Notes: generated by a model from the sequence alone, not told the origin. Shown: positions 1,980 through 58,799, counted from the first letter of the stretch. The stretch: 64,000 nt of DNA from Nitrospirota bacterium (GCA_037441365.1 JBBISG010000002.1:7462-71461); one strand, 5' to 3'. Program-made: numbers and translations.

Positions 1980-3394
1980 TAATAGCAGGCACACATAGCG
2001 GATGCGGGAAGACGACCATAACGCTTGGACTTATGGCTGCCTTAAAGAAAAGAGGGCTGAAGGTCCAGCCGTTCAAGGCAGGTCCTGATTTTATAGACGC
2101 CGGGCTTCACAGGATGGTGACGGGCAGACCTTCAAGGAATCTCGATTTATGGATGTGCGGTGAGGAATATGTGAAGGATTGTTTTTATAAATACTCGCAG
2201 GATGCGGATATGGCGATAATTGAAGGTGTAATGGGAATGTATGACGGCGAATGCAGCACTGCAAAACTGGCAGGACTGCTTAACCTGCCTGTGATTTTAG
2301 TTGTCGATGCCTATGGCATGGCTGAAAGCGCAGGGGCGTTAGTTCAAGGGTTTAGGGATTTGGGATTTGGGATTAGTAAAAAAGCTAACCCCCAGTCCCT
2401 AACCCCTAATCCCTTAGTGGGTGTTATCTTCAACCGTGTTGCATCGGAGAGACATTATGAAAGACTCAAACGCAGTATCCGCAATGTGAAAGTTCTCGGT
2501 TATCTGCCAAGAGACTTGAACTTCGAGATTCCTCACAGGCACCTTGGATTGACCGTTGTAGAAGAGAATCCTCTTGCTGAAGAAAATATGCAAAGGCTTG
2601 CAGACGCAGTTTTGAAGCATATTAATACTGATTTACTTTTAAATATTGCAAGCACACCCCGGCCACTCCACCCCCTTCCCCCTCCGCCCCTGCAGTACTT
2701 CACCGCTTCACCATTAATCGCAGTCGCTTACGACAGGGCATTCAGTTTTTACTACGAGGACAACCTCGATTTGCTGAGAGATGCTGGCGCTGAAATAGTA
2801 GTGTTCAGTCCTATCGCTAATGTATCGGTCCCTGCTGATGCAGATGCCCTTTACATCGGAGGGGGTTATCCTGAGCTTTATGCAAGGGAATTATCTGAAA
2901 ACAGTTCTATGCTTAAGTCTATTAATGAATGGGCAGATTCTAAAAGGCCCATTTATGCTGAATGCGGGGGGCTTATGTATCTGTCAAGGGGCATTTATGA
3001 CCCTGACGGGAACTTTTTCCCGATGGCCGGGATATTCTCCTTTGAAACACGGATGAAAAAAGAGAGGGCACATCTGGGCTACAGGGAGATACTTTTAAAA
3101 GAAGACTGCATACTCGGCAAGAAGGGCGAACGATTAAGGGGGCACGAGTTTCATTATTCGGAGATAGTTGACAACAACTATGAGTCAGGGGTTATGAGTT
3201 ATGAGTTAAAAAACGAAAAGAACTCCAGCCCCCTGAATTGTTACTCGTTACTTCACGGTAATCGTGATGAAGGATATGTATTTAAAAATACCCTTGCAAG
3301 CTATGTGCACGTCCATTTCGGGAGCAACCCATGCATTGCACAGAACTTCGTAAATTTCATATCGCAGGAGAGTAAATGGAAATGGAAAACATAA
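1964..3394 (+). CDS. cbiA: cobyrinate a,c-diamide synthase (CbiA/CobB) with in-frame hairpin-repeat insertions
   Basis: N-terminal P-loop GTHSGCGKTTITLGLMAAL..QPFKAGPDFID. C-terminal glutamine amidotransferase part has YAECGGLMYL and GHEFHYS. Confidence 0.85.
   Translation: MSKGIVIAGTHSGCGKTTITLGLMAALKKRGLKVQPFKAGPDFIDAGLHRMVTGRPSRNLDLWMCGEEYVKDCFYKYSQDADMAIIEGVMGMYDGECSTAKLAGLLNLPVILVVDAYGMAESAGALVQGFRDLGFGISKKANPQSLTPNPLVGVIFNRVASERHYERLKRSIRNVKVLGYLPRDLNFEIPHRHLGLTVVEENPLAEENMQRLADAVLKHINTDLLLNIASTPRPLHPLPPPPLQYFTASPLIAVAYDRAFSFYYEDNLDLLRDAGAEIVVFSPIANVSVPADADALYIGGGYPELYARELSENSSMLKSINEWADSKRPIYAECGGLMYLSRGIYDPDGNFFPMAGIFSFETRMKKERAHLGYREILLKEDCILGKKGERLRGHEFHYSEIVDNNYESGVMSYELKNEKNSSPLNCYSLLHGNRDEGYVFKNTLASYVHVHFGSNPCIAQNFVNFISQESKWKWKT
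2353..2413. repeat. H-element H1: hairpin with heptamer-repeat arms, in-frame in cbiA
   Basis: TAGGGAT TTGGGAT TTGGGAT TAG - loop TAAAAAAG - CTAACCC CCAGTCC CTAACCC CTAATCC C. Translated as DLGFGISKKANPQSLTPNPL. Confidence 0.8.
3179..3265. repeat. H-element H2, in-frame in cbiA
   Basis: Left arm GAGTCAG GGGTTAT GAGTTAT GAGTT. A-rich loop AAAAAACGAAAAG. The right arm contains CCCCTGA and TTACTCG TTACTTC and is imperfectly complementary. Confidence 0.6.
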
Positions 3395-4389
3395 TACTCA
3401 TAGGACACGGCAGCCCCAAAAGAAGTGCAAATAATATTGAACTTGTAGGAAGGCTCTTACATGCTGCAATCCATCCAGATTGCGAGAACGGCTGTGTAAG
3501 GGTTGCGTATCTGCAGTTTGCAGAACCTGATCTTAGAGCCGCCATTAAAGAGAGTGTTCGTGATGGGGCCAGAAGGATAATAATACATCCATACTTTCTG
3601 AGCAGTGGCATGCATGTCACAAAAGACATACCTGAGATAATAAAAGAGGCAAAGGATATGTATCCTGACGCGGAATTTATTTATACAGAGCCTCTTGGTA
3701 TCCACGAAAAATTGGTTCAGGTTATAGCGGAAAGGATTCTATCAGCAAAGGGGTCAGGACCGCAGGACATCGAGAAGAGAAGCTTTGAGATAATCTCAGA
3801 GGAACTCGATTTAAGGAACGTCCCCCCTGAACGGATGCCGATCATAAAGAGGGTGATACACGCAACTGCCGATTTTGAATTCCGCGATACACTCATTTTC
3901 CATCCCGATGCAATAAAGAGTGGCATTGAGTCGATAAGGTCTGGAAAAGATATCCTGACCGATATTGAGATGGTTAAGACCGGAATAATCAAACGGTGGC
4001 TCGAACCCTTTGGCGGAAAGGTAATATGCAATATTAATGACGAGGATGTTATAAGGCTCTCAAAGGAAACAGGAAAGACTCGCTCGGAGATTGCAGTTGA
4101 AAAAGCATTAAATGAAAACAATAGTATTGGCATCATCGCCATTGGCAATGCACCAACAGCCTTACTGAAAGTCGTTGAGATTTTAAGTTCCCACAACACT
4201 CCAATACTCCATCACTCCGTTCCCCTTGTTATCGGCGTGCCTGTCGGTTTTGTTAAGGCATTGGAATCAAAGGTACTGCTCTCGTCACAGAGATTTCCCT
4301 TTATTACAAATCTCAGCAGAAAGGGAGGGACACCGGTTGCAGTCGCAATCGTTAATGCATTATTAAAGATGGCAAAGGAGGAAGCATGA
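3376..4389 (+). CDS. fusion protein: small CbiX-type sirohydrochlorin cobaltochelatase (N-terminal ~125 aa) plus cobalt-precorrin-8 methylmutase CbiC/CobH (C-terminal ~210 aa)
   Basis: N part: ILIGHGSPKRS...RIIIHPYFLSSGMHVTKDIPEII. C part: IIKRVIHATADFEF...IIAIGNAPTALL...VIGVPVGFV...RKGGTPVAVAIVNALL. Confidence 0.75.
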   Translation: MEMENIILIGHGSPKRSANNIELVGRLLHAAIHPDCENGCVRVAYLQFAEPDLRAAIKESVRDGARRIIIHPYFLSSGMHVTKDIPEIIKEAKDMYPDAEFIYTEPLGIHEKLVQVIAERILSAKGSGPQDIEKRSFEIISEELDLRNVPPERMPIIKRVIHATADFEFRDTLIFHPDAIKSGIESIRSGKDILTDIEMVKTGIIKRWLEPFGGKVICNINDEDVIRLSKETGKTRSEIAVEKALNENNSIGIIAIGNAPTALLKVVEILSSHNTPILHHSVPLVIGVPVGFVKALESKVLLSSQRFPFITNLSRKGGTPVAVAIVNALLKMAKEEA

Positions 4390-5144
4390 GAATTAAAGTT
4401 TCAAAGTTCAAGGTTCAAAGTATCTGTACTGCTCTGTTGCTTTTACTTCCTGTCTGTGAGGCCCATGCGATGCACATATCAGAGGGGATACTGCCCTTCG
4501 ACTGGGCAGCGTTGTGGACTGTAATTGCAATCCCATTTGTAGCATACGGACTATATAAGCTAAAGAAGCTCTCTGCCATTGATCTGTCTTTCAAACCCCT
4601 TGTGGGATTGATGGCAGCAGTCGTCTTTATCATCTCCTGCATGCCTATACCTGTGCCGACTGCAGGCACATGCTCACATCCATGCGGAACCGGGATATCA
4701 GGGATACTCGTGGGTCCTGCAATAAGCATATTGATAACTGCTGTTGCCCTTCTAATTCAGGCGCTCTTTCTTGCTCACGGTGGTCTCAGCACATGGGGAG
4801 CGGACATAGTATCAATGGGCGTGATCGGCTCATTTGCAGGATATCTTACCTTCAGGGGATTGAGGGCGTTAAAGGCTAATCTCTGGATTGCAGGCTTCAT
4901 GGCAGGTCTCTTTGCAGACTGGGCAACATATCTGACAACATCTGTTGAACTTGCCTCAGGCATAAAAGGTGATTCGCCGTTCATGCCTCTTTTCTGGAAG
5001 ATACTTATCGCCTTTATACCGACACAGCTTCCATTAGGAATCCTTGAAGGCGCAATGACAGCAGGCATGGTTGTCCTGCTTTATAAGAAAAGACCTGACC
5101 TTCTTGTGAAGATGCGGGTATTAAAGCCAAAGGAGGCGATATGA
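4386..5144 (+). CDS. cbiM: cobalt ECF-type transporter substrate component CbiM
   Basis: Signal peptide ending AHA is followed by MHISEGILP, the conserved mature N-terminus of CbiM. Multiple TM segments. ATGA overlap with the upstream gene. Confidence 0.85.
   Translation: MRIKVSKFKVQSICTALLLLLPVCEAHAMHISEGILPFDWAALWTVIAIPFVAYGLYKLKKLSAIDLSFKPLVGLMAAVVFIISCMPIPVPTAGTCSHPCGTGISGILVGPAISILITAVALLIQALFLAHGGLSTWGADIVSMGVIGSFAGYLTFRGLRALKANLWIAGFMAGLFADWATYLTTSVELASGIKGDSPFMPLFWKILIAFIPTQLPLGILEGAMTAGMVVLLYKKRPDLLVKMRVLKPKEAI
4395..4422. repeat. H-type tandem heptamers (single arm) at the cbiM 5' end
   Basis: AAAGTTT CAAAGTT CAAGGTT CAAAGTA, encoding KVSKFKVQS of the signal-peptide n-region. Confidence 0.6.
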
Positions 5145-5473
5145 AGTTAAAAGTTGAAAGTTTAAAATTTAAAGTTAAAAGTTATGGCGTTATATTTTTG
5201 TTTATTTTTTCATTGTTAGCTGTTCACTGTTCACTTGCAACCGCTGCTGACAAATGGCCTGGTGTTGATGAGTCGGTTGTAGAGAAATACGCAAAAGAGC
5301 ATGGCAGAGAGGCGATGACGCCCTTAATAAACACTGACCAGGGAGACCTCCTTCTCTTTGTCTTCCTGCTTGCAGGCTCTGTTGGCGGTTTTGTAGCAGG
5401 ATACTACTGGAGGGAACTGATAGTCAAAGGACAGCGAGATGATAGTTGCGAAAAACAAAAGATAAAGACATAA
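5141..5473 (+). CDS. cbiN: small membrane component CbiN-like
   Basis: 110 aa with two hydrophobic segments. The loop ...GVDESVVEKYAKEHGREAMTPLINTDQGDLLLFVFLLAGSVGGFVAGYY resembles CbiN. Sits between cbiM and cbiQ. ATGA overlap with cbiM. Confidence 0.65.
   Translation: MKLKVESLKFKVKSYGVIFLFIFSLLAVHCSLATAADKWPGVDESVVEKYAKEHGREAMTPLINTDQGDLLLFVFLLAGSVGGFVAGYYWRELIVKGQRDDSCEKQKIKT
5144..5187. repeat. H-type tandem heptamers (single arm) at the cbiN 5' end
   Basis: GTTAAAA GTTGAAA GTTTAAA ATTTAAA GTTAAAA GTTATGG, encoding KLKVESLKFKVKSYG. Confidence 0.65.
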
Positions 5474-5483
5474 AGGGATAAAG

Positions 5484-6236
5484 GTGGAATTATTTTCAGA
5501 CTACTTTAAAAAGGATCATCTACTTTCAAAGGTTGATGCAAGGCTAAAGCTTATTGTCAGCCTCACCCTTCTGGGAATGATTCTAAGCTATAAGGGATTT
5601 ACCCTTCCTCTGCTTGTGACACTGCTCTGTTTGCTGCTCTGTTTAAGGATGCGGATACCCTTAAGGGTCTTTGCCCTCAGGTTTTCAGAGCCGTTGTTCA
5701 TTATCTCGGTGATCCTTATTTTAAAGGTCTTATTCTCAGGGGAGGACATCCTGTTTTCCATCAGCATATTCGGCGCCAACATTGTTGGACATAAAGACGG
5801 GTTACGGGATGGACTCATGATAGGAAGCAGAATAATAGGCGCAGTATCGGTAGTTGCAGTAATGGGATTTTCCACGCCCTTCACAGAGATTATGGCAGCC
5901 CTTTCATGGATGAGGGTTCCGAAGGGGTTCATAGAGATACTCATGTTTGCCTACCGGTATATCTTTGTCCTTCTTGAAGATGCAATGGTAATTTACAATG
6001 CACAGAAAAATCGTCTCGGTTATTCCAGCATAAAAAAGGGTTTAAACTCTTTCGGAACACTTACCGGCTCTCTTATTATCAAGGCATTTGAGCAAAGCCA
6101 GAATATTACAACTGCGATGATTCAAAGGGGATACGAAGGAAATATGCCAATGCTGAAACATAGACCATTCAGGCCTTCAGAAATTGCCGTTTCAGTCCTA
6201 TTAATAATTGTGCTGGGGTTTGTATGGAAAATATAA
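5484..6236 (+). CDS. cbiQ: ECF transporter transmembrane (T) component CbiQ
   Basis: 250 aa polytopic protein. The C-terminal part ...AYRYIFVLLEDAMVIYNAQKNRLGY... is typical of CbiQ/EcfT. Position between cbiN and cbiO. Confidence 0.8.
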   Translation: MELFSDYFKKDHLLSKVDARLKLIVSLTLLGMILSYKGFTLPLLVTLLCLLLCLRMRIPLRVFALRFSEPLFIISVILILKVLFSGEDILFSISIFGANIVGHKDGLRDGLMIGSRIIGAVSVVAVMGFSTPFTEIMAALSWMRVPKGFIEILMFAYRYIFVLLEDAMVIYNAQKNRLGYSSIKKGLNSFGTLTGSLIIKAFEQSQNITTAMIQRGYEGNMPMLKHRPFRPSEIAVSVLLIIVLGFVWKI

Positions 6237-7168
6237 CAAGAACAGACAACACAGCCCCACCTACCCATCCCTCTCCCTCGAGGGGGGAGGGTAAGGGAAA
6301 GGGTGAAAGTCCGGGGTCTGCTGTCCGGGCTCTGGATTCTGTTAGGTTAGCCGTTAAAATAAATTCATTCAAATATCCTGATGGGACTCGTGCGCTGTCT
6401 GATATCACGTTTGATGTATCGCATGGCGAATTTATCGGTATACTCGGCTCAAATGGTTCTGGAAAGACAACACTGCTTAAAGTAATGGACGGCCTGATGA
6501 AAGATTTTGAAGGCAATGTTTATCTTGACGGAGTTGACATAAAAAAACTTTCTCCAAAGGAGATTTACAAAAAGGTCGGACTCGTCTTCCAAAACCCCGA
6601 TGACCAGCTCTTTGCCTCAACGGTCTTTGAGGATGTTGCATTCGGGCCGAGAAATATGGGATTTTCTGAAAGTGATGTAGTAAGCCGTGTATGGAATGCC
6701 CTGAGCGCTGTTGAAATGGAGGCCCACTCTAAAAAATCCATCCATAACCTGAGTTTTGGACAGAAGAAAAGGGTCTGCATTGCAGGCCTTCTGGCAATGG
6801 GGCATGAAATATTACTGCTTGACGAGCCGACTGCTGGATTAGACCCGATGGGGGAGTATAAGATGATGAACCTCCTCACAAAATTAAACAAAGACAAGGG
6901 GGTAACCACTGTTATGGCAACGCACAGCGTTGACCTTGTGCCCTTATTTCTGGACAGGCTTTATATCTTGAGCAGAGGGGGCATTGTGAGGGGTGGATAC
7001 CCGGAGGATGTCTTTCAGGCGCCAGAGGAAATGGAGAATGTAAAACTCAGGCTTCCCCAGATCGCAGAGCTCGTATGGAGGCTGAAACATGAAGACAATA
7101 TGCCCTTTGAAAGGATTCCGCTCACCGTGGGTGAGGCGAGAAGGGAGATTGTAAGGTTATATGCGTAA
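6224..7168 (+). CDS. cbiO: cobalt ECF transporter ATPase CbiO, with ~40-aa repeat-derived N-terminal extension
   Basis: Walker A GSNGSGKTT, signature LSFGQKKR, Walker B ILLLDEPTAGLD. The 13-nt overlap with cbiQ supports the ATG at 6224. Confidence 0.85.
   Translation: MENITRTDNTAPPTHPSPSRGEGKGKGESPGSAVRALDSVRLAVKINSFKYPDGTRALSDITFDVSHGEFIGILGSNGSGKTTLLKVMDGLMKDFEGNVYLDGVDIKKLSPKEIYKKVGLVFQNPDDQLFASTVFEDVAFGPRNMGFSESDVVSRVWNALSAVEMEAHSKKSIHNLSFGQKKRVCIAGLLAMGHEILLLDEPTAGLDPMGEYKMMNLLTKLNKDKGVTTVMATHSVDLVPLFLDRLYILSRGGIVRGGYPEDVFQAPEEMENVKLRLPQIAELVWRLKHEDNMPFERIPLTVGEARREIVRLYA
6255..6309. repeat. H-element H5 at the cbiO 5' end
   Basis: CACCTAC CCATCCC TCTCCCT C-GA-GGGGGGA GGGTAAG GGAAAGG GTGAAAG. 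Translated as PPTHPSPSRGEGKGKGES. Confidence 0.75.
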
Positions 7169-7679
7169 AGGTTATATACAGGTATATACAGGTAATGGAA
7201 AAGGAAAGACCACTGCAGCGGTAGGGCTTGCTGTAAGGGCAGCAGGTGCTGGTCTCAGGGTATTATTTGCTCAGTTTATAAAAAAGAGAAGGTGCAGCGA
7301 ACACAAGGCCCTTGAGAGATTCAGCGACCTCATTACCGTCAGGCAGTATGGAACGGGTTTTATAAGGGGAAGGAGGCCCTCAAGGGCAGCAAGGTCTTTA
7401 TCAGAGAAAGGACTTGAGGATGCAAGAGAGGAGGTGGTCTCAGGACAGTACGACATCGTTATCCTTGACGAGATAAATGTGGCAATTAATCGCGGGCTTA
7501 TCGATCTTGAAGATGTCATCTCGATGCTGGACAGCAAACCTCCGAATGTTGAGCTTGTTCTTACAGGCAGATATGCCCACAGCAGGATCATAAGAAAGGC
7601 TGACCTTGTTACAGAGATGAAGAAGGTCAAACATTATATGGATAAAGGTGTAAAGGCAAGAATAGGAATTGAAAAGTGA
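7161..7679 (+). CDS. cobO: cob(I)yrinic acid a,c-diamide adenosyltransferase (CobO/CobA/BtuR type)
   Basis: GYIQVYTGNGKGKTTAAVGLAVRAAGAGLRVLFAQFIK and DIVILDEINVAI. Confidence 0.85.
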   Translation: MRKGYIQVYTGNGKGKTTAAVGLAVRAAGAGLRVLFAQFIKKRRCSEHKALERFSDLITVRQYGTGFIRGRRPSRAARSLSEKGLEDAREEVVSGQYDIVILDEINVAINRGLIDLEDVISMLDSKPPNVELVLTGRYAHSRIIRKADLVTEMKKVKHYMDKGVKARIGIEK

Positions 7680-8463
7680 GAGGTCAAAAGTGAGGAAGAT
7701 ATATCTCATCGGTATAGGTCCGGGTGATCCGCAGTATCTGACGCAGCAGGCAGTAGAGATAATGAGAAATGTCGATGTGTTTTTTATCCTTGAAAAGGGG
7801 TCTGAGAAGAACAGAGAGCTTGTGAGGATCAGAAAGGGGATCCTTGAAAGATATCTGCCTGACAGGAATTACAGGATTGTCACGGCGAAGATCCCTGATA
7901 GAAGTAGAGGCGGCAAGGAGTTTGAGATATATAGGGGAAGGGTTGACTCATGGCGTAAACAGAAGGCTGAAATCCTGGCCGGCCTGATCAAGGATGGGAT
8001 GAATGACGGAGAGACTGCTGCCATACTGATCTGGGGTGACCCATCTCTTTATGACGGACATATAGAGATATTAGATTATATACTCAGACAGAAAAAGATA
8101 GATCTTGAATTTGAGGTCATACCGGGTATAACGAGCATACAGGTGCTTACTGCCAGGCATAAGATACCGCTGAATCAGATAGGTGAAGGCATTGTGATAA
8201 CTACATCGAGGGGTCTCAAGGAACTCCTCCCCTCAGAGGTCAGCAATAATGTAGTCTTACTTGATAACTATCTGACCTACAGAAATTTCAGGGAAACAGA
8301 TCTCTATATATACTGGGGGGCCTATCTCGGCAGCCCTGATGAGATCATCCTTTCAGGAAAAGTGAATGATATCCTTGATGACCTTATAAGGACAAGAAAT
8401 GAGGCAAAAAAGAAAAAGGGCTGGATCATGGAGACATACATCCTGAGGAGGCATAGGGAGTGA
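7669..8463 (+). CDS. cobF: precorrin-6A synthase (deacetylating) CobF-like tetrapyrrole methylase. The start may be the GTG at 7690
   Basis: RKIYLIGIGPGDP...VDVFFILEKG...WGDPSLYD...VIPGITS...IYWGAYLGSPDEIILSGKV...GWIMETYILRR matches my recollection of Pseudomonas denitrificans CobF over its full length. Confidence 0.7.
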   Translation: MKSERSKVRKIYLIGIGPGDPQYLTQQAVEIMRNVDVFFILEKGSEKNRELVRIRKGILERYLPDRNYRIVTAKIPDRSRGGKEFEIYRGRVDSWRKQKAEILAGLIKDGMNDGETAAILIWGDPSLYDGHIEILDYILRQKKIDLEFEVIPGITSIQVLTARHKIPLNQIGEGIVITTSRGLKELLPSEVSNNVVLLDNYLTYRNFRETDLYIYWGAYLGSPDEIILSGKVNDILDDLIRTRNEAKKKKGWIMETYILRRHRE

Positions 8464-8476
8464 AGGAGAGGCTGAT

Positions 8477-9388
8477 GTGCTGAGGATAGGGCATCTATCG
8501 ACTTTTTATCATACATCCTTGTTGTTAATGGCCGAGGGAATTGACGATAGACTCGGGACTGTGGTGGAATGGAAACTCTTTGGAACAGGACCTGACATCA
8601 TACGGGCATTTGAACGGGATGAGATAGACATTGCTTATATCGGGCTTCCACCGGTGGTGATCGGGATAGACAGAGGGCTCAGGATTAAATGTATAGCAGG
8701 GGGGCATGTAGAAGGGACTGTAATTGCCGGGGCTGACAGTGTAAGGGGTTTCCCTGATGTGCAGGATCTCGGAGAATTATTACGTCAATTCAGAGGCAAG
8801 AGGATCGGGGTGCCCGGTAGGGGTTCTATCCATGATGTGATAGTGAGAGACTGTATCGATAGCTATAGCCTTGCCGGTGATATAGGGGTAATAAATTTCC
8901 CATGGGCTGATCTCATTGTAGAGGCTGTGAGAAAAGGCGAGGTCTCTATCGCCGCAGGCACGCCAAATCTATCCGTAGCATTAAGGCGGTTTCTTGGCAG
9001 AAGGATTCTATGGCCGCCAGAGAGATTGTGGCCGGACAATCCGAGCTATGGGATAGCGGTGAAGGAGGAGTTTCTCAGGGAATCAGAACTCATAAAAAAA
9101 TTTCTTCTCCTCCATGAAGATGAAACATCTTTTTTGAAAAGAAGGCCCGGGGATGCATCAAAGGTCATAGCGTCAGTCGTGGGGATAGTGGATGAGGACT
9201 TTGTCCTTGAGACCCTCATGGTCTCACCAAAATATTGTGCCTCACTGCCAGAGGGATACATCTCATCAACAATGAAACTTGTGAAGGCCATGAAAAGACT
9301 CGGTTATATAAAACAGGAACTGGCAGCACACGAAATCTTTTATACCGATATAATCAGCGAGATTCACCCCGGCAGAGCTCATTACTGA
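8477..9388 (+). CDS. periplasmic-binding-protein-fold protein (NMT1/THI5 / SsuA-TauA-like); no obvious signal peptide
   Basis: LRIGHLSTFYHTS...GPDIIRAFERDEIDIAYIGLPPVVIG is the type 2 SBP pattern. GTG start. Function not assignable. Confidence 0.45.
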   Translation: MLRIGHLSTFYHTSLLLMAEGIDDRLGTVVEWKLFGTGPDIIRAFERDEIDIAYIGLPPVVIGIDRGLRIKCIAGGHVEGTVIAGADSVRGFPDVQDLGELLRQFRGKRIGVPGRGSIHDVIVRDCIDSYSLAGDIGVINFPWADLIVEAVRKGEVSIAAGTPNLSVALRRFLGRRILWPPERLWPDNPSYGIAVKEEFLRESELIKKFLLLHEDETSFLKRRPGDASKVIASVVGIVDEDFVLETLMVSPKYCASLPEGYISSTMKLVKAMKRLGYIKQELAAHEIFYTDIISEIHPGRAHY

Positions 9389-10484
9389 AGATCTCCTTTA
9401 TTTCTACAGGTGTGAGGGGGATATTGGGGACATCTCTGTTCCCGGGCAGTGCAAGGACATGTATGAAGCGAGGCCCCGGCGACCTTTTATTTATAGCCTC
9501 TATAAGGTCCCTTTTCGTTGATACCTTTACGGTATTAGAAATTCCAAAACCCCTCGCAACCATCTCAAGGTCTGTACATCTCGCTGTGAGTGTAGGCTGG
9601 TCGCCGGTAGAACCATAAGATCCATTATCAATTGCGACGACACTGAGATTTCCCGGCCTGAGATAGGCCATAGTGCCGAGAGTGCCCGGGTTCATGAGAA
9701 GGCTTCCATCTCCATCAATGACAAGGACATCTCTTTTTGTAAAGAGAGAGATGCCAAGACCAATGGGGGTTGCCATACCCATACTTCCGAGCATGTAGAA
9801 GTTTGAAGGCTGGTGTTTTATATAAAAGAGCTCCTTCGACGGAATGCCGAGATTAGAGACCACTATCTTTTGCCCAAGATAGGGTGCCAGTGTCTCTATG
9901 AGCTCGAAACGCGTGTATCTCGGCACAGGTATTTTCGACTGCTTGATCCTGGGTCCCCTGAATCTTCCATCCCTCGGTCTTTTTAGCTGCTTCTTGATAC
10001 CCCATAGTGCTGGACTCATAAGAAAGACGGATATTTTATGACCTTTATAGACATTCTGCAATTCCTCCCTCACGAGTCTTAAATCACTGTCTTCCCTGAG
10101 GATCAGATATTCAATACCGCATGCCTCAAGTATTCCTAAAAGTGCCCGCCCCATGGGTATCTGGGCAGGTATCCTCTCATTGTCCATCCCACGCCAGCTC
10201 ACGAATATACTCAAAGGTAAATCATAGGTCTTCGTCAGCGACATAATGGCATTTAACATGTTTCCAAGGCCAGAGCTCTGGACAAACATCGCCGGCCTCT
10301 TCCCACAGAGGGCAGCACCTGCACAGATGCCCACGCCTTCCTCTTCCCTTGTCAGGGGAATATGTAAGAAATTGGATTCGATGAGTGAGAGGAGAACATT
10401 GATCTTTTCACACGGAAGTGTTGCGATGGGATCTATCGATGATGCCCTGAGGATCTCTATCATCTGTTCCTCACAGGTTTGCAC
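9354..10484 (-). CDS. fused alpha/beta TPP-dependent decarboxylase of the sulfopyruvate / phosphonopyruvate decarboxylase family (ComDE-like)
   Basis: IDPIATLPCEKINVLLSLI...REEEGVGICAGAALCGKRPAMFVQSSGLGN in the N half. TPP motif region GSMGMATPIGLGI...VIDGDGSLLMNPG in the C half. 376 aa. Confidence 0.7.
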   Translation of the reverse strand: MQTCEEQMIEILRASSIDPIATLPCEKINVLLSLIESNFLHIPLTREEEGVGICAGAALCGKRPAMFVQSSGLGNMLNAIMSLTKTYDLPLSIFVSWRGMDNERIPAQIPMGRALLGILEACGIEYLILREDSDLRLVREELQNVYKGHKISVFLMSPALWGIKKQLKRPRDGRFRGPRIKQSKIPVPRYTRFELIETLAPYLGQKIVVSNLGIPSKELFYIKHQPSNFYMLGSMGMATPIGLGISLFTKRDVLVIDGDGSLLMNPGTLGTMAYLRPGNLSVVAIDNGSYGSTGDQPTLTARCTDLEMVARGFGISNTVKVSTKRDLIEAINKRSPGPRFIHVLALPGNRDVPNIPLTPVEIKEIFSNELCRGESR

Positions 10485-39624: not shown

Positions 39625-39760
39625 CCCCCTTTTGCCGTAGTCGTTGCATAACTCATTCGGGCAGAAGAAGTCTATCGTCTCTGCTGAAAGTACCATGCAG
39701 ATTTTATATATCAACAGGGCTTCTCATGTCAAGATGCCGAATTGCCTCATTAGGAATCAA

Positions 39761-39796
39761 GGCACCCCAAAAAATCTGCGATTTTTTGGGGTGCCC
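39761..39796. repeat. P-element copy P5, intergenic, 12 nt downstream of the ntrC-like stop
   Basis: GGCACCCCAAAAAATC-TGC-GATTTTTTGGGGTGCC is a perfect 16-bp stem. Confidence 0.9.
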
Positions 39797-42640: not shown

Positions 42641-43498
42641 ATGGTAGTAACAATGAAAGAGCTCCTGGAGGCAGGGGTCCATTTTGGCCACCAGGTGAAG
42701 AGATGGAATCCGAAGATGAAGAAATACATCTTCGGCGAGAGAAACGGCATTTACATAATCGACCTTCAGAAGACACTGAAGGGGATTGAAGATGCCTGCA
42801 ATGTCATCAGAGAGGTCGCCATGAAAGGTGCACCAATACTCTTTGTTGGCACCAAGAAACAGGCCCAGGACGCTATCCAGGAGGAGGCGCAGAGGGCAGG
42901 GGCCTTTTATGTAAACCAGAGATGGCTCGGCGGAATGCTGACAAACTTTTTTACCATCAAGAAGAGCATAGAGCGACTCAAGGCCATCGAGAAGATGAGA
43001 GAGGATGGCACCTATGATGCCATATCGAAAAAAGAGGTAGCTATCCTCGAGAAGGAGAGGTCAAAGCTCCAGCGGAATCTAAGCGGTATAAAAGAGATGC
43101 CCGGACTGCCAGGTGCTATATTCGTGGTAGACTCCAAAAAGGAGAGGATCGCTGTTCTTGAGGCAAGAAGGCTCTCCATCCCTGTAGTTGCAGTGGTCGA
43201 CACGAACTGCGACCCTGACGAGGTTGACTATGTTATCCCCGGCAATGATGATGCAATCAGGGCAATAAAGCTGCTGACATCAAAGGTGGCTGATGCTGTT
43301 ATAGAGGGGAAAGAGGCGCTCTCAAAGGCTGCCTCGGCAGAGGCCGAAAAGGCGATGATAGAAGACAAGATCGAGCAGGAAGAGGGCACCCCAAAAAGTC
43401 AAAGACTTTTTGGGGACCCCGGTGAGGCAGAAGTATCTGAGGGGGGCCTTGCAGGGGAGGGGGAATATCACCCGCATACTTCGGAGGTTTCGGCATGA
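42641..43498 (+). CDS. rpsB: 30S ribosomal protein S2 with ~35-aa C-terminal extension containing a palindromic element
   Basis: [51 protein letters not shown] upstream. Confidence 0.95.
43384..43420 (-). repeat. P-element copy P7 inside the rpsB 3' extension
   Basis: GGGCACCCCAAAAAGTC-AAA-GACTTTTTGGGGACCCC, translated as [12 protein letters not shown]. Confidence 0.9.
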
Positions 43499-49357: not shown

Positions 49358-49361
49358 GGGT

Positions 49362-50089: not shown

Positions 50090-50160
50090 TTTTCCTTCTG
50101 ATTTTTGCAAAATATCAGTAATATTAAAAGTTTTATGAAAAAGGAGGAGAAAACATAAAA

Positions 50161-50248
50161 CCACAGAATTTAACCCAGAGCACAGAGAAAAAGAATTTTG
50201 GATTTAGAAAAAACTCTGCGAACTCGTGGTGAGAATTTCTCCGTGAGG
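50161..50248. repeat. H-element H9, intergenic between vapC and the glycosyltransferase block
   Basis: Left arm CCACAGAATTTAACCCAGAGCACAGAG. A-rich loop. Right arm CTCTGCGAACTCGTGGTGAGAATTTCTCCGTGAGG. CACAGAG-type units as in H13. Confidence 0.6.
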
Positions 50249-53624: not shown

Positions 53625-54542
53625 ATGTGTGAAAATGGAGATGTGGATAGTATATCTATACTCATTAGGTGCAAGAATGAAGAAAAATTCATAGGTCTAA
53701 CACTCGAGAAGATATTCGAACAAGAGATCAATACGCCATTTGAAGTGATCGTAATAGATTCTGGTTCAACTGATAGAACTATTGAGATAGTGAAAAATTT
53801 CGATGTTAAATTATATCAAATAGCACCAGAAACATTTACTTTTGGCTATGCCCTTAATTATGGAATAGAACGAGCAAAAGGAACAATAATCGCTAATATT
53901 TCTGCTCATTGTATTCCTCGCAACAACCAGTGGCTCTCTGAACTGGTCAGGCCCATTGTGGAAGGTAACGCAGGTGCAACATATGGAAGGCAGATCCCCG
54001 TTGAAGGGGTAAATCCATTCGAGGAGGTTTCCTTATACAAGCACTTTCCTGAAGATGAGAAAAAAAAAGGCAGGGTACCATTTTCAAATGCAGCTTGTGC
54101 CTTTCTGAAAGAGATGTGGATTGAGAGGAGATTTGACGAGGAGATGCCCAGTTGGGAAGATTACCTATGGTATCTATTAATGAAAGACAGATACAGATTT
54201 AAATACTGCCCGGATTCAATTGTATATCACTCCCATGCCTTTTCCATGGAATGGATTAAAAGGCGCGCCTTTATAGATGGCCAGGCATTCAAATTGATCA
54301 AAAAGAAATATGGCATAGACCTTCTTGATGGTTTATATCCAACCTTTAGGGAAAAGGTGAAATGGGGTCCCCAAAAAATCGCAAGATTTTTGGGGGTGGC
54401 ACTAGGAATATTTATAAACGATGTAAAACACCATTTAAGGCTCTTTAAAAAAAATGGTTACTTGAGGCAGATATTCTTGATACCCATTGTGAGATTGCAT
54501 GTCTATAAGGCATACTGGAAGGGATACAGGTCCGTAAGGTAA
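53625..54542 (+). CDS. family-2 glycosyltransferase (paralogous to 51324..52172) carrying an in-frame palindromic element near the C-terminus
   Basis: ISILIRCKNEEKFIGLTLEKIFEQE...EVIVIDSGSTDRT...WEDYLW. Confidence 0.7.
   Translation: MCENGDVDSISILIRCKNEEKFIGLTLEKIFEQEINTPFEVIVIDSGSTDRTIEIVKNFDVKLYQIAPETFTFGYALNYGIERAKGTIIANISAHCIPRNNQWLSELVRPIVEGNAGATYGRQIPVEGVNPFEEVSLYKHFPEDEKKKGRVPFSNAACAFLKEMWIERRFDEEMPSWEDYLWYLLMKDRYRFKYCPDSIVYHSHAFSMEWIKRRAFIDGQAFKLIKKKYGIDLLDGLYPTFREKVKWGPQKIARFLGVALGIFINDVKHHLRLFKKNGYLRQIFLIPIVRLHVYKAYWKGYRSVR
54364..54400 (+). repeat. P-element copy P9 inside the fourth glycosyltransferase gene
   Basis: GGGGTCCCCAAAAAATCGCAAGATTTTTGGGGGTGGC, translated as WGPQKIARFLGV. 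Confidence 0.85.
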
Positions 54543-54567
54543 TTTGTGATTATAACAGTCATACCAT

Positions 54568-54623
54568 TGGGAAATAGGAAGTAAAATTTGTCTGAAAGTC
54601 TGTCACTTCCCATTTCCCATTTC
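54568..54623. repeat. H-element H10, intergenic
   Basis: TGGGAAATAGGAAGTAAAA - loop - CACTTCCCATTTCCCATTTC. Confidence 0.75.
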
Positions 54624-54629
54624 TTAACC

Positions 54630-54666
54630 GGGGTTCCCAAAAAGTCAAAGACTTTTTGGGGTGCCC
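54630..54666 (+). repeat. P-element copy P10, intergenic, adjacent to hairpin H10
   Basis: GGGGTTCCCAAAAAGTC-AAA-GACTTTTTGGGGTGCCC. Confidence 0.9.
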
Positions 54667-54716: not shown

Positions 54717-57700
54717 TCACCCCTTACACCACTTTCTTGCATTCTGAAACATCTTGAGCCAGGGCGATGCCCTGAGCGTCTTCCAGTCATCGGGCATCCA
54801 CGGCCACTGCCATTTCAAGAATGTCCTCTCTGGATGGGGCATGATAGCGAGGTGTCTTCCGTCAGGCGAGCAAAGGGCCGCAATGCCGAGCGGAGAGCCG
54901 TTTGGATTGAAGGGATAGGATTCTGTAATCCCCCCGCTGTCATCAACGTATCTCACCGGAGCAAGGCCCATCTCTATCACCCTGCCTTTGACCGATTCGT
55001 CGGGGAAATATGCCCTCCCCTCACCATGCGCCACCCAGATGCCAAGGGTCGAGCCCTCCATGCCCTTAAGCATAATGGATGGGCTCGGTAAAATCTTTAC
55101 TGTGGCGAATCTCGATTCAAAGCGGCCTGACCTGTTCTGGATAAACCTCGGCTGCAATCTGTCCTCTATTCCTGTCCACGGCACCCAGCCCAGGAGGGCC
55201 ATCAGCTGGCATCCATTGCATACACCGAGGCTGAAGGTCTCATCCCTGCTGTAGAATCTTTCGAACTGCTCATATATTCTCTTATTGAACCTTATTACCC
55301 CTGCCCACCCCTTTGCCGAATCGAGGACATCTGCATAGCTGAACCCTCCAACAAAGGCGATGCCCTTAAAATCATCGAGGGATATATCCCCTCTGAGAAG
55401 GTCAGTCATTGTGACATCCCATGTCTCGAATCCTGCTTGATAAAAGGCTCCCGCCATCTCCCTGTCGCCATTACTGCCCTCTTCCCTTATGATCGCAACC
55501 CTCGGCTTTGTCCTTCGAGTGATGATTTCGGGTGCTGTTGGCTCGGGCGTGAATGTAAGCCTATATGATGGCCCCTTCCTGTCAAAGATATTCTTCCACT
55601 CCTCATCAACACAGTCAGGGTCTGCCTGCAATCTGTCGAGGCGGTAGCTCGTCTCCTCCCACGATGCCCTCAGATGCTGCATCTCTTCATCTAAAACCGT
55701 AATGCGCGAAGAAGGGCACCCCAAAAAATCTGCGATTTTTTGGGGACCCCGGTTGTGATGCGTGATAAGATTTATTTTTATTCTTTTTTCTATCAGTGTC
55801 CTGCCGATGAACTGATAAGGGACAGAGAAGCCTCTGACAATAGAAATTATCTCGTCTTCTTTCTCTGGCATGTATTCCATCACTAACCCCGATTCCTCGG
55901 AAAACAGTATTCGTATTGTCTCCTCCCCTGACTCCTGACTCCTGACTCCTGACTCCAAACTTATCTCCAATCCACAGTTTCCAGAAAACGCCATCTCCAG
56001 GAGTGCAACGATCAGTCCGCCGTCACTTATGTCGTGCCCGGAGAGGATGAGGTCATCTTCAATGAGTCTCTGGACTGCTAAGAATGTGCGCCTCAGTAAC
56101 TGTGGGTCTTCTATATCTGGAGACTCATCGCCAATCTGGTTGTAAACATGGGCGAGTGCAGAGCCTCCGAGTCTGTATCTGCCTTTCCCGAGGTCGATAT
56201 ACAGGAGCCTGCTATGGCCCGGCCTCTTTATATCAGGGGTGACGACCTTTGTTATGTCAGGACATGTGGCATAGGCTGAGATAACGAGTGCACCAGGGGC
56301 CTTAACAACCTCCCTGTCACCATTAACCCCCTGCACCATGGCTGCCATAGAGAGGCTATCCTTTCCACCATCTACCGCTATGCCGAGCTCTATCATAATG
56401 TCCCTCAAGGCTTCGGCTGCATCATAAAGGGCGGCACCCTCGCCGGGCAGCTTCGCTGCCCACATCCAGTTAGCAGAACACCTGATGTCCTCAAGTCTGC
56501 TCACCTTTGCCCAGAGGATATTTGTGATGGCCTCGGCCACGGCCATCCGCGCCATTGCTGCTGGGCTTATGAGGCCCTTGATAGGCTGCTCTCCTATAGA
56601 TATCGCTGCACCTGTAAAGACTCCATCTGAAGGGAAATGGCTTTGAGAAATGACCGCCACATCAGAGACAGTAAGCTGTAGAGGGCCGACGCACTGCTGC
56701 CTTGCTATCAGACCCGTCACAGACCTGTCGACCTTATTCGTGAGAAACCGTTTTGAGCCGACGGACACAAGCCTCAAGACCCTCTCAAGGGCATCCTTTA
56801 CATTCAGGGCATCAGGCAGTCTTAGCGGTTCAAGCTGAGGGGGGATTCTATCGAGCCTGAAGGTCTTCTGCGGCATCTCGCCAAGGACCTTTCTGAGGTC
56901 GAGATTGACAGGGGTGCTTCCATCACTTTCATCATAGAGGACTATATAGCCGTCACCTGTTATATGGCCGACTGTAGCAGAGGGAACCTTCTCCCTCCTG
57001 CACAACTCTGTGAACATCTCCGCACTTTCAGGTCTTATCAGAAGGGCATTGGATTCCTGATACTCAGCGCCCCATATCTCAAGGACAGAAAGGGTGTTGT
57101 CTCCAAGAGGTATCTTTCTCACCTCTATCTTTGCTCCAGCAGGGTATATTATCTCCTTTATGACATTGCAATTGCCGCCCGCACCCTGGTCATGGATGCT
57201 TATTATCGGGTTTTCGTCACCGAGCTCTACGCATGCACGGATGACCCTGTTGAGCTTTTGCTCCATCTCAGCATCGCCCCGCTGCACTGCATTGAAGTCG
57301 AGTTCCTCTGACAGCTCACCAGCAAGCACAGATGACGCAGATCCGCCGCCTATACCGATTCTATATGCAGGACCGCCCACCTTAACAACGAGCATCCCCT
57401 TGTCAGGCATCCCCTTTTCTGTATGTCTTTCATCCATCTGGCCTACACCGCCTGTGAACATTATAGGCTTTATCCATTCCCTCCTCTGGCCATTGGGAAG
57501 CCTCATGCCAAAAGACCTTGTAAAGCCCTGTATTACAGGCTCCCCAAATTTATTCCCATAGTCTGATGCCCCGTTGCTTGATTCTATCTCTATCTGGAGG
57601 GGGGATGCAAGGTTTCCTGGGTAACCAAAGGAGCCGTCTTCCCACGGGAGTCTGTAGCCGGGTATCCTGAGGTTGCCGACACAGTATGCAGCAGTGCCTG

Positions 57701-58799
57701 CTATCACAAGACCTCCCCTCCCAACGGCCTGTATATCCCTTATCCTCCCCCCTGTCCCTGTCTCTGCACCCGGAAATGGTGCTACACCAGTTGGAAAGTT
57801 GTGCGTCTCTGCAGTGAATATAATGTGGTATGTCGGAGACCTCTCGATGAACGGGGACGGCCTGCCAGGCCTTTCAGGGATAATGGTCTTAATCCTGTAT
57901 CCCCTTATCGCAGAAGAGTTGTCTTTAAAGGCTATTATGCTGTTATTGGGATTCTTTTTATAGGGCTCCTTTATGAGCTCCATAAGGGTAGCAGCGGCCT
58001 CTTTCCCATCTATGATAAGCCTCCCCTTAAAGAACCAGTGCCTTGAGTGTTCGCTGTTTGACTGACCGAGGTCAAAGCACTCAACATCTGTTGGGTTTCT
58101 CCTCAGGTCATTGACAAAGAGATTATAATAGTAGTCGATATCCCATTTATCAAATCCGAGGCCGAGCTCCCTGTTTATCCTCTCAATTGCTGCCCTGCCC
58201 TCTTCGATGACCTTAACCTCATACACAGGTTCAGGCCTGAGCCCTGTCTCAAAGGTCTCGAGCCTTTCAGGATAGAGGCATTCAGTCATTTTGTCAAAGA
58301 AGAGTGATAAGTGATGAGTGATGAGTGATGAGTAAAAATCATTTACACTCGTTACCCTTGACGCATCACGTATTACGAACTTATATCTCCTTGAGCGTTC
58401 AATACGGCTTATCTTCTTTAATCCACAGGCATGACATACGGAGACCGCATTCGTTGACCATGCGGTTGTGAAGTTCATCCTCGGGCCGACCTCAAGAACA
58501 GAGCTAAGAGCACAGAGCCCAGAACTCAGACTGTCTTTATCTGTGCTCTGTGTTCTGTGTTCTGTGTTCTGAATGAAGAAGCTTTCATCCGAGAAATTCT
58601 CGGGCTCGAAGGTCTCACGGAGGAGCCATTCCAGAACCCCGATCTCTTCAGGGAGAAGGGGATCCGAATCGATGTAAAAACAGTACTCTGTCTCGATATC
58701 CTCTATACCGGCGGAGACCCTCTCTCTCAATACGGACAGGAGGTTCTTCTTCTTTGTCTCGGAGAGGGCAGGGACCCTGTATCTGTAGATTAAAGGCAA
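54717..58799 (-). CDS. purL: phosphoribosylformylglycinamidine synthase, single-chain large PurL, with several in-frame repeat insertions
   Basis: 1360 aa. ETHNFPTGVAPFPGAETGTGGRIRD, the DxG-containing FGAM synthetase domains, and a C-terminal triad glutaminase (GVCNGCQ...HGEG). Confidence 0.95.
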   Translation of the reverse strand: MPLIYRYRVPALSETKKKNLLSVLRERVSAGIEDIETEYCFYIDSDPLLPEEIGVLEWLLRETFEPENFSDESFFIQNTEHRTQSTDKDSLSSGLCALSSVLEVGPRMNFTTAWSTNAVSVCHACGLKKISRIERSRRYKFVIRDASRVTSVNDFYSSLITHHLSLFFDKMTECLYPERLETFETGLRPEPVYEVKVIEEGRAAIERINRELGLGFDKWDIDYYYNLFVNDLRRNPTDVECFDLGQSNSEHSRHWFFKGRLIIDGKEAAATLMELIKEPYKKNPNNSIIAFKDNSSAIRGYRIKTIIPERPGRPSPFIERSPTYHIIFTAETHNFPTGVAPFPGAETGTGGRIRDIQAVGRGGLVIAGTAAYCVGNLRIPGYRLPWEDGSFGYPGNLASPLQIEIESSNGASDYGNKFGEPVIQGFTRSFGMRLPNGQRREWIKPIMFTGGVGQMDERHTEKGMPDKGMLVVKVGGPAYRIGIGGGSASSVLAGELSEELDFNAVQRGDAEMEQKLNRVIRACVELGDENPIISIHDQGAGGNCNVIKEIIYPAGAKIEVRKIPLGDNTLSVLEIWGAEYQESNALLIRPESAEMFTELCRREKVPSATVGHITGDGYIVLYDESDGSTPVNLDLRKVLGEMPQKTFRLDRIPPQLEPLRLPDALNVKDALERVLRLVSVGSKRFLTNKVDRSVTGLIARQQCVGPLQLTVSDVAVISQSHFPSDGVFTGAAISIGEQPIKGLISPAAMARMAVAEAITNILWAKVSRLEDIRCSANWMWAAKLPGEGAALYDAAEALRDIMIELGIAVDGGKDSLSMAAMVQGVNGDREVVKAPGALVISAYATCPDITKVVTPDIKRPGHSRLLYIDLGKGRYRLGGSALAHVYNQIGDESPDIEDPQLLRRTFLAVQRLIEDDLILSGHDISDGGLIVALLEMAFSGNCGLEISLESGVRSQESGEETIRILFSEESGLVMEYMPEKEDEIISIVRGFSVPYQFIGRTLIEKRIKINLITHHNRGPQKIADFLGCPSSRITVLDEEMQHLRASWEETSYRLDRLQADPDCVDEEWKNIFDRKGPSYRLTFTPEPTAPEIITRRTKPRVAIIREEGSNGDREMAGAFYQAGFETWDVTMTDLLRGDISLDDFKGIAFVGGFSYADVLDSAKGWAGVIRFNKRIYEQFERFYSRDETFSLGVCNGCQLMALLGWVPWTGIEDRLQPRFIQNRSGRFESRFATVKILPSPSIMLKGMEGSTLGIWVAHGEGRAYFPDESVKGRVIEMGLAPVRYVDDSGGITESYPFNPNGSPLGIAALCSPDGRHLAIMPHPERTFLKWQWPWMPDDWKTLRASPWLKMFQNARKWCKG
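55715..55751 (-). repeat. P-element copy P11 inside purL
   Basis: GGGCACCCCAAAAAATC-TGC-GATTTTTTGGGGACCCC. On the coding strand it is translated as RGPQKIADFLGCPSS. Confidence 0.9.
55928..55956. repeat. tandem heptamer run (CTGACTC x4) in-frame in purL
   Basis: CTGACTCCTGACTCCTGACTCCTGACTCC. The coding strand is translated as GVRSQESGEE. The complementary arm is not clearly retained. Confidence 0.6.
58302..58376. repeat. H-element H12, in-frame in purL
   Basis: GAGTGAT AAGTGAT GAGTGAT GAGTGAT GAGT - AAAAATCATTTA - CACTCGT TACCCTT GACGCAT CACGTAT TAC. Confidence 0.8.
58507..58571. repeat. H-element H13, in-frame in purL
   Basis: AGAGCAC AGAGCCC AGAACTC AGAC - TGTCTTTAT - CTGTGCT CTGTGTT CTGTGTT CTGTGTT CTG. 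The coding strand is translated as QNTEHRTQSTDKDSLSSGLCALSS. Confidence 0.85.

Follow-up and report, generated by a model that had tools for sequence, protein, structure and literature searches.

The 64,000-nucleotide (64-kb) stretch of Nitrospirota DNA analyzed here (GCA_037441365.1, JBBISG010000002.1:7462–71461; hereafter, the window) contains many short tandem arrays of 7-nucleotide (nt) units, some of which are followed by a loop and an inverted array, in the layout of a hairpin. We believe, with rather modest confidence, that these arrays are dispersed families of heptanucleotide (occasionally octanucleotide) repeat cassettes, of the same kind as the short tandemly repeated repetitive (STRR) sequences of cyanobacteria and the heptamers of Xanthomonas and Nostoc. 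The cassettes are probably repeat DNA, neutral or selfish, that is tolerated and happens to supply variable peptide linkers, and there is no evidence that they constitute switches or required structures. The host of the window is an uncultured Thermodesulfovibrionales (Nitrospirota) bacterium. The PurL protein encoded in the window shares at most 74% identity with those of species representatives, all of which are Nitrospirota or Thermodesulfovibrionales metagenome-assembled genomes (MAGs). The window was compared with purL- and cbi-centered loci of its relatives, including an NCBI MAG contig with a 90% identical PurL (L082), a locus with a 79% identical PurL (L083), a Logan contig with 98.8% DNA identity to window positions 1–9855 (L084), and two JGI contigs with approximately 80–93% DNA identity to the window (L085 and L086).

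Excess, structure, and dispersal of the heptamer arrays

Arrays were detected as self-similarity at a fixed lag and were defined by a period of 7, at least three units, and a self-match of at least 80%. The window contained 12 such arrays, compared with a mean of 0.16 and a maximum of 1 in 50 dinucleotide-preserving shuffles, so the loci singled out in the initial annotation, which had proposed this comparison, far exceed chance expectation. Period-8 arrays were also in excess (5 versus 0.22 expected from the shuffles), whereas periods 4 and 5 were not enriched and period 6 was enriched only mildly. Tandem Repeats Finder called the same loci as the fixed-lag scan, and the units are legible directly in the sequence. 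The loci are as follows (positions in the window).

2347–2414, plus strand: H1, a loop of CbiA (amino acids 128–151), with a (GGGATTT)n arm, the loop AGTAAAAAAGC, and a (TAACCCC)n arm; a member of the GGGATTN family
3187–3250, plus strand: H2, a second cbiA loop, with a degenerate hairpin of (GAGTTAT)n, an A-rich loop, and (GTTACTC)n
4395–4421, plus strand: single-arm (AAGTTCA)n array in the leader region of cbiM, directly behind its start codon
5144–5184, plus strand: single-arm (AAGTTAA)n array at the cbiN start, in an N-terminal extension or the cbiM–cbiN spacer
5209–5235, plus strand: single-arm (GTTCACT)n array that codes for the hydrophobic portion of the leader of CbiN
6258–6305, plus strand: H5, a C-rich/G-rich hairpin (CCCATCC CTCTCCC / GGGGGAGGGTAAGGG) near the cbiO N-terminus, with a loose periodicity of 6–7 nt
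31306–31349, unstranded: H6, downstream of convergent genes, with an 11-bp hairpin (GGGAAGT/ACTTCC) and then an (ACTTCCT)n array
36851–36950, plus strand: H7, a composite hairpin of 8-nt units (GCAGTAGA.., ATGGAGTA..) at the junction of cbiET and the next gene
39558–39623, unstranded: H8, (GGGATTN)5, a short loop, and (CCGAAYT)3, in the 5' leader of the minus-strand gene for inositol-1-phosphate synthase
50160–50232, unstranded: H9, an intergenic degenerate hairpin, CACAGAG / CTCTGCG
54568–54624, unstranded: H10, GGGAAATAGGAAGT, a 22-nt loop, and ACTTCCCATTTCCCATTTC, between convergent genes and abutting a palindromic P-element (54635–54661)
55700–55770, minus strand: degenerate (ACGCATC)n array in purL, interrupted by an inserted 42-nt P-element
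55924–55961, minus strand: single-arm (AGTCAGG)4 array in a purL linker (amino acids 947–959), encoding the peptide SLESGVRSQESGE
58302–58376, minus strand: H12, purL (amino acids 144–166), with a (CTCATCA)n arm encoding SSLITHHLSL and a degenerate ACGCATC-like arm
58498–58574, minus strand: H13, purL (amino acids 76–101), with a (CAGAACA)n arm, a loop, and a degenerate complementary arm

The initial annotation had described 13 or more loci with the layout array–loop–inverted array. The set is non-random and approximately half of its members are clear hairpins, but the others are single-arm arrays or weak folds. When both strands were folded, clear structures with z-scores of −3.4 to −5.9 were obtained at 2345–2420 (H1; −4.1 on the plus and −5.9 on the minus strand), 36845–36960 (H7), 54565–54630 (H10; −3.6 on the plus and −5.0 on the minus strand), 58298–58375 (H12), and 58495–58575 (H13; −5.1), and four of the heptamer hairpins belonged to the top 16 when the 80-nt structure outliers of the whole window were ranked by strength. 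The folds at 3180–3255 (H2; z = −2.45), 6255–6312 (H5), 31295–31355 (H6, an 11-bp stem with a trailing single-arm array, predicted to be terminator-like on the plus strand), 39555–39630 (H8), and 50158–50236 (H9; z = −3.5, on the minus strand only) were weaker or degenerate. H5 is a weak member of the set: its fold of −30 kcal/mol has a z-score of only −1.6, which is not better than that of shuffled sequences, yet it was a structure outlier in the window scan. The arrays at 4395–4421, 5144–5184, 5209–5235, and 55924–55961 consist of a single arm and form no hairpin. The loops, described initially as A-rich, are indeed mostly A-rich on the coding strand.

In 1.45 Mb of DNA from the relatives, 193 period-7 arrays were found, 162 of which (84%) lay within ORF-like frames (stop-free open reading frames of at least 120 codons, a definition that overestimates the coding DNA); the array density outside the ORFs was approximately 2.2-fold that inside. 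The density varied strongly among lineages, from up to approximately six arrays per 10 kb in some Thermodesulfovibrionales MAGs to zero in other MAGs and in the outgroups; L005, L050, and L081 exemplify the array-rich lineages, whereas 24 kb of OY760142.1 (L077) contained no array. An inverted arm (score ≥20) adjoined 15% of the heptamer arrays in 80 related loci, compared with 0.5% of the controls. Because only this fraction of arrays has an adjacent inverted arm, the hairpin is a minority state, and the heptamer array itself is the general feature. Structures of this type recurred in the NCBI MAG contig, two Logan assemblies, and the JGI contigs; since independent assemblies carry the same structures, the arrays are real sequence, and an assembly artifact can be dismissed. 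In one related locus (L071, 1345–1602), approximately 35 heptamer units resembling (CCCTCTGA)/(CCTCTGTG) were followed by a short inverted arm, which indicates that arrays can far outgrow the 3–6 units typical of the coding sites.

In terms of unit sequences, the hairpins were initially thought to share an architecture without sharing a sequence, with a different unit at each locus. [quoted passage not shown] However, this picture is misleading overall, because the same units recur at other sites and in other genomes. Although more than 60 different canonical units were present among 147 arrays, 2.3% of the pairs of non-orthologous purL sites shared an identical unit, compared with 0.09% in a composition-matched null (25-fold), and 7.9% carried units no more than one mismatch apart, compared with 1.0% in the null. 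The recurring units included CTCATCA/CTCGTCA, CAGAACA, AACTCCG, AGAAGTC, and CTTCAGC. The GGGATTN hairpins could be aligned over their full length, including the A-rich loop, at five sites in four genomes: H1 aligned with another cbiA loop, cobD, and an aminotransferase gene of L089, and with the intergenic H8 of the window. Two of the L089 copies (sites 1 and 2) had a private loop variant in common that was absent from the orthologous copies of other genomes. Similarly, L083 contained two near-identical 95-nt composite copies with an inner motif, ACTTCCCATTTCC, that is likewise present in the window's H6 and H10, and H6 shares ACTTCCYATTTCC with H10 and the L083 elements. Cassette "alleles" at cbiA were common to distant lineages. 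Thus, several dispersed sequence families exist, the units are not arbitrary, and the hairpins are not only the products of a sequence-blind generator.

A metagenome scan for the H1 pattern (GGGATTNGGGATTRG..YAACCCCCA) was uninformative on dispersal, returning mostly low-GC contig ends and a single bacterial match (L097). Those metagenome contigs (L090–L169; GC content, 18%–30%) carried (GGGGATT)n-GGGCCC-(AATCCCC)n, mostly at their ends, and bore no relation to the bacterial elements. They probably represent ciliate-type telomeres fused head to head, whether this happened in vivo or was the work of the assembler.

Host sites and turnover of the cassettes

The arrays occupy DNA under relaxed sequence constraint, which comprises surface loops and interdomain linkers of enzymes, regions encoding leaders or signal peptides, and spacers that are intercistronic or 3'. 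In an alignment of PurL from the window and 24 relatives, the three purL loci of the window corresponded to three short stretches that carried inserts in almost every Thermodesulfovibrionales orthologue, in the form of a heptamer or octamer array, an array hairpin, or a palindromic P-element read as PPxPPLxKGG. No inserts were found at these three sites in Thermodesulfovibrio yellowstonii-like genes or in the outgroups, and the sites fell in alignment gaps relative to solved PurL structures. H12 was common to L004, L005, L015, L019, and L082, the H13 site of L009 contained the first arm only, and the orthologues of the 55924 site bore arrays of related or unrelated units. Among 80 CbiA homologues, three loops carried arrays, hairpins, or P-elements in most orthologues, T. 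yellowstonii-like genes again bearing none, and the H2 site was a hot spot of hypervariable insertions. Many Nitrospirota CbiA proteins (homologues P0123–P0163) contained a third class of insert derived from repeats, in the loop at window amino acids ~230–245; its peptides include ASYSVIPACRESFLAEGLRTSRNDK and SFPLVGNHSSSEGLRTSRNDN, and it has the look of a REP-like element lying in frame. In CbiM and CbiN, the leader regions contained arrays in all three genomes compared: L085 has an (AAATTCA)n array, related to (AAGTTCA)n, at the position of the window's cbiM array (4395), and at the cbiN start L085 and L087 bear related arrays whose units differ from the window's (AAGTTAA)n. The spacer between cbiET and the next gene, the likely true start of which is a TTG near 36968, likewise contained arrays in each genome compared, with a different array, (ACAGACA)n, in L086 in place of H7.

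As stated in the initial annotation, many loci lie in frame within ORFs, and the reading frame was intact in every intragenic case, which is necessary for an intact gene. The cassettes seed unit peptides such as SSLITHHSSL, NTEHRTQNTE, and RDWGLGIG..NPQPLTPNP. In the SSLITHHSSL array, which is common to 14 lineages, 63% of the codons for identical degenerate amino acids were themselves identical, compared with 37% in the conserved flanking codons. Because 7 is coprime to 3, each position of the unit is read as codon positions 1, 2, and 3 in successive units, and a homogenized array therefore has no truly silent sites. This is sufficient to explain the high nucleotide conservation of the arrays, and no structural function need be invoked.

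The orthologous arrays often differed by a single substitution repeated across all their units (AGTCAGG ×4 versus AGTCAGA ×4, for instance), and at purL site 2 the consensus units were no more than one mismatch apart in 42% of orthologous pairs, compared with 3% in a composition-matched null. Such unit-wide substitutions indicate concerted evolution within the arrays, and to that extent the generating mechanism suggested initially is borne out, in the form of local array dynamics.

Whole cassettes were also exchanged. At the H1 site, the 98.8%-identical L084 had another cassette in place (..ATTCACCGATTCACCG..), and the 250-nt bin containing it had 61 mismatches, compared with approximately two elsewhere, with the divergence reaching 30–50 nt into the flanks. 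H13 was missing from the 90%-identical L082, in which a 27-nt unrelated filler took its place (net 54 nt), whereas H12 and the 55924 array were conserved in L082 with no indel. A whole-cassette swap also separated L005 from L017 at purL site 2, even though the two are 96% identical. The cbiA gene of the window (1964–3394) is a mosaic, approximately 95% identical to that of L085 at both ends but only 40%–65% identical between 2316 and 2700, and around the H1 cassette it is closest to that of the otherwise distant L087. In three strain comparisons, no clean insertion or empty site was found for the heptamer hairpins, all changes being replacements with diverged flanks, and neither target-site duplications nor conserved termini were found for these hairpins. 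In contrast to these exchanges, the arrays at 3187, 4395, 5144, and 5209 were identical in L084. The phase-variation-like behavior envisaged initially was not seen, and phase variation was rejected because the number of units in these four arrays did not change relative to this 98.8%-identical contig. The host genes are housekeeping genes. The only tandem array with a unit-number difference between the window and L084 was an AAATGG hexamer repeat at the cbiA/cbiX-cbiC overlap (3374–3388), which differed by one unit; a separate 3-nt indel was present at ~7371.

The P-elements, palindromes of approximately 40 nt (GGGGxCCCCAAAAARTC-loop-GAYTTTTTGGGGxCCC), occurred in seven copies in the window (720–747, 841–868, 39764–39791, 43388–43415, 54368–54396, 54635–54661, and 55718–55745), including copies in frame within an aminotransferase gene, rpsB, a glycosyltransferase gene, and purL. 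Three of them were missing from close relatives, leaving precise in-frame gaps of 39 or 42 nt with no target duplication, and these clean gaps mark the P-elements as recently mobile. Their landing places tend to be heptamer arrays or the DNA next to these; the 55700 array, split in the window, was uninterrupted in L082 and contained a different palindromic insert in L004. The idea that the arrays are stacked 7-bp target-site duplications left by repeated insertion and excision of P-elements was rejected on the basis of the three clean insertions without target duplication. At the H8 position (window 39554–39623), L082 and L086 instead contained a small ORF of 110–136 amino acids with Zn-ribbon and HTH_28 helix–turn–helix (HTH) domains (L082, 15548–15958, minus strand; L086, 3816–4148, minus strand), which overlaps the ribosome-binding site of the inositol-1-phosphate synthase gene and weakly matches the N-terminal domains of IS1 and TnsD.

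The window has a G+C content of 46% and is dense with housekeeping genes. It encodes a cbi/cob cobalamin operon, corrinoid methyltransferases, sigma-54 regulators, rpsB-tsf-pyrH-frr, comEC, glycosyltransferases, a single-chain purL, and purB. An Rfam search of both strands (window 1–64000) returned no family at the gathering score, and in particular no cobalamin riboswitch despite the large cbi/cob gene content. No transposase, REP-associated tyrosine transposase (RAYT), reverse transcriptase, or Y1 transposase is encoded within the window. A diversity-generating retroelement or CRISPR was dropped as a candidate, there being no reverse transcriptase, template/variable repeat pair, or spacer structure. 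Two further hairpins were observed, one of which is terminator-like (26841–26905; a perfect 16-bp palindrome, then a second hairpin and a T-run, after a DsrE-like gene), whereas the other is a perfect 13-bp hairpin (CCTGTCTGTGTGC/GCACACAGACAGG; 24081–24109) situated in a divergent promoter region, upstream of the gene for a sigma-54 activator.

Sense/antisense polarity of the hairpins

Among 27 array hairpins located within ORFs, the antisense fold was stronger in 23, the sense fold in three, and the two were tied in one, whereas in control coding windows of the same genes the antisense fold was stronger in only 41% (binomial P ~1e-6). After the orthologues were collapsed, the polarity persisted at approximately 17 of 20 by our own count. 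The antisense folds contained 94 G·U pairs, compared with 50 in the sense folds, and the intergenic hairpins in co-directional gene runs showed the same tendency (6 to 3). Base composition was ruled out as the cause, given that the control coding windows folded slightly better on the sense strand. The simplest reading is that mismatches weakening the hairpin in the mRNA (or the sense strand) are favored, which would make the structure a tolerated rather than a used one. The polarity may also stem from selection on the peptide or from an effect of the replication strand. As far as we have found, this asymmetry is a new quantitative observation, and it could separate transcription-linked from replication-linked constraints on intragenic hairpins.

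Relationship to known repeats and origin of the cassettes

The STRR sequences of cyanobacteria are short tandem arrays of 7-nt units at many dispersed loci, comprise several unit families, are strongly over-represented, and have no known function. The arrays described here resemble them in having tandem 7-nt units in at least three copies, an excess of period 7, and unit families dispersed over unrelated loci. They differ in their phylum, Nitrospirota, in their many more unit types, and in their frequent inverted pairing, and whereas the described STRR and Xanthomonas cases are mainly intergenic, 84% of the arrays here are within ORFs and in frame.

More generally, in many bacteria the long simple-sequence repeats reported to be most over-represented are those with heptanucleotide units (summarized in PMC4679880 and PMC4692102), and one proposal is that the polymerase may hold a DNA stretch of approximately 7 nt, a circumstance that would favor slippage (summarized in PMC4679880). 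The initial annotation knew of no described equivalent of the paired arrays, but several have been published. Each Xanthomonas genome has 70–75 loci at which two GGGAATC arrays converge as an inverted pair (Rehm et al. 2015, PMC4692102), an arrangement that corresponds to the array–loop–inverted-array layout observed here. Nostoc contains arrays of GGGGA(T/C)T heptamers, and in the repeats surveyed by Rehm et al. the type of array is usually kept between species while its length varies (PMC4692102). The GGGNATC/GGGGAYT repeats form G-quadruplexes (G4) and show a preference for four units (PMC4692102). The GGGATTN unit of H1 and H8 is nearly the same G3-4N3-4 heptamer, a likeness confined to these two loci and their counterparts in relatives; in contrast, the arrays here have many units, most of which are not G-rich, are mostly coding, and have arms of 3–5 units. 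The TAACTGA arrays of marine Beggiatoaceae, cyanobacteria, and some Bacteroidetes comprise 2–6 units, often immediately upstream of start codons (MacGregor 2015, PMC4679880), encode 7-residue periodic peptides in one orientation, and have a patchy phyletic distribution (PMC4679880). The arrays here are also short and patchy across lineages, with some near start codons, whereas TAACTGA is a single heptamer, almost always in direct orientation (the reports include only one indirect repeat) and located mainly between genes.

Rickettsia palindromic elements (RPEs) are in-frame palindromes in unrelated housekeeping genes, located at fold-compatible positions and encoding a family-specific peptide (PMC10969869). 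The likeness to these elements, namely in-frame residence at permissive positions in housekeeping ORFs, is one of behavior only: RPEs are discrete insertions of approximately 100–150 bp without heptamers, whereas the elements here are 45–100 nt long and built from heptamers. No sequence relationship to RPEs was apparent, although no formal search was made. REPs and REPINs are short imperfect palindromes in many copies that are extragenic, share a conserved family sequence with a recognition tetranucleotide, and co-occur with a RAYT gene (PMC3116915). The cassettes share with them their short imperfect palindromes, high copy number, and frequent location between genes in operons, but they are mostly intragenic and of many unrelated sequences, no conserved family sequence with such a tetranucleotide was found, and the window encodes no RAYT or Y1 transposase. 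The searchable library contained no literature pairing Nitrospirota or Thermodesulfovibrio with heptanucleotide or heptamer repeats. What sets the present case apart from known systems is the phylum, the number of unit families, the intragenic in-frame loop hot spots, the swapping of cassettes, and the strand asymmetry.

If the cassettes are dispersed families of this kind, their history may be pictured in several steps. A limited vocabulary of units and whole hairpins, the recurrence of which is observed, would be copied to non-homologous sites. Within each array, replication slippage or intra-array conversion would then maintain uniformity; the concerted pattern is evident, and slippage is its presumed cause. 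Inverted arms might arise or be renewed by template switching. Whole cassettes and some of their flanks would be exchanged between lineages by homologous recombination, as the replacement tracts and gene mosaics attest. Selection would act only as a filter, admitting lengths that are multiples of three, units that are stop-free in all frames, and tolerable peptides, and would favor the weaker sense-strand hairpin, a role that is borne out in part.

Several observations weigh against this account. It offers no explanation for the preference for period 7, and the 64-kb window encodes no transposase, RAYT, or reverse transcriptase that could account for the copying from site to site. Many of the counted loci are orthologous, so the independent events are fewer than the raw counts. 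The H1 cassette is identical in L087 at 66 of 68 nt (97%), loop included, although cbiA overall is only 72% identical; slippage and drift do not predict this, and it fits either a very recent transfer or direct selection on the sequence. Furthermore, the strand asymmetry could reflect selection for structure in the antisense strand, and some intergenic members occupy plausibly functional places, such as the terminator-like H6 and H8, which lies just upstream of a ribosome-binding site.

An alternative that we consider possible but rather unlikely is that the cassettes are tiny non-autonomous mobile elements, that is, MITE-, REP-, or RPE-like families of 45–95-nt palindromes, one family for each type of unit, moved by a trans-acting enzyme encoded elsewhere into permissive sites, ORFs included, with the single-arm arrays as their decayed remnants. 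The GGGATTN family with its conserved loop at five non-homologous sites, the private loop variant at two sites of L089, the two 95-nt copies in L083, and the vocabulary of units common to different sites would all be expected of such elements, as would an H1 cassette better conserved than its flanks. The co-resident P-elements do insert cleanly and in frame, and the Zn-ribbon/HTH ORF found in relatives at the H8 position is transposase-like. However, the three strain comparisons showed no clean empty site but rather cassettes replaced together with diverged flanks, and no conserved termini or target-site duplications were found; the hairpin members are inverted repeats over their whole length, but termini specific to a family could not be delimited, and approximately 85% of the arrays have no inverted arm at all. 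The unit-wide substitutions in orthologous arrays are typical of concerted evolution in place, and the window contains no transposase or RAYT. The opposite extreme, a purely local and sequence-blind generator in which a lineage-specific quirk of replication or repair duplicates arbitrary 7-nt segments and makes snap-back inverted copies in weakly constrained DNA, without any spread between sites, would account for the more than 60 canonical units among 147 arrays, the different units at the same orthologous site, and the 8-nt variants beside the 7-nt ones. It also accords with the proposed ~7-nt stretch held by the polymerase (PMC4679880) and with the likeness to adjacent native sequence of several array borders and of H8 at the end of its arm 2 (TGCCGAG). 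Nevertheless, we regard it as distinctly improbable, since identical units at non-orthologous sites were 25-fold more frequent than in the null, hairpins at unrelated sites could be aligned over their full length including the loops, and the cbiA "alleles" were common to distant lineages.

Functional structures, such as terminators, mRNA stabilizers, translational regulators, G-quadruplex or protein-binding arrays, or a selected antisense- or template-strand structure, seem to us a very unlikely explanation of the set as a whole. The location of H10 between convergent genes and of H7 and H8 just upstream of start codons, where TAACTGA arrays are similarly placed in Beggiatoaceae (PMC4679880), is suggestive, together with the terminator-like H6, nucleotide conservation beyond coding needs, the consistent strand polarity, and the resemblance of GGGATTN units to the G4-forming GGGNATC/GGGGAYT repeats (PMC4692102). 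However, 84% of the arrays are in ORFs of unrelated housekeeping genes, the hairpin on the transcribed strand is the weaker one, and the cassettes were swapped for unrelated ones or lost in strains that are 90%–99% identical. In addition, neither of the two differences between the H1 copies of the window and L087 was compensatory when read by eye, and there was no Rfam match. A functional role is plausible for a few intergenic members, such as H6. A bolder possibility, which we think doubtful, is that a lineage-specific active process, involving for example an unusual replicative or repair polymerase or a DNA-binding or nicking protein, continuously rewrites unconstrained DNA into 7-nt and snap-back inverted arrays and copies favored cassettes between sites. 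If so, protein loops, leader peptides, and spacers would be built from an exchangeable repeat "vocabulary," and the strand asymmetry would be a signature of the strand acted on.

If the cassettes are indeed dispersed heptanucleotide repeat families, this clade would be a natural experiment in the invasion and reshaping of essential proteins by simple-sequence DNA; almost every species bears its own repeat-encoded peptides in the same loops of PurL and CbiA, and these peptides differ even between strains that are 96%–99% identical. The cassettes inflate the apparent divergence of proteins and seed spurious peptide motifs, and they may break assemblies or serve as sensitive strain markers. The preference of bacteria for 7-nt repeats becomes testable in a second, unrelated phylum, in which array-bearing and array-free lineages can be compared for candidate genes.

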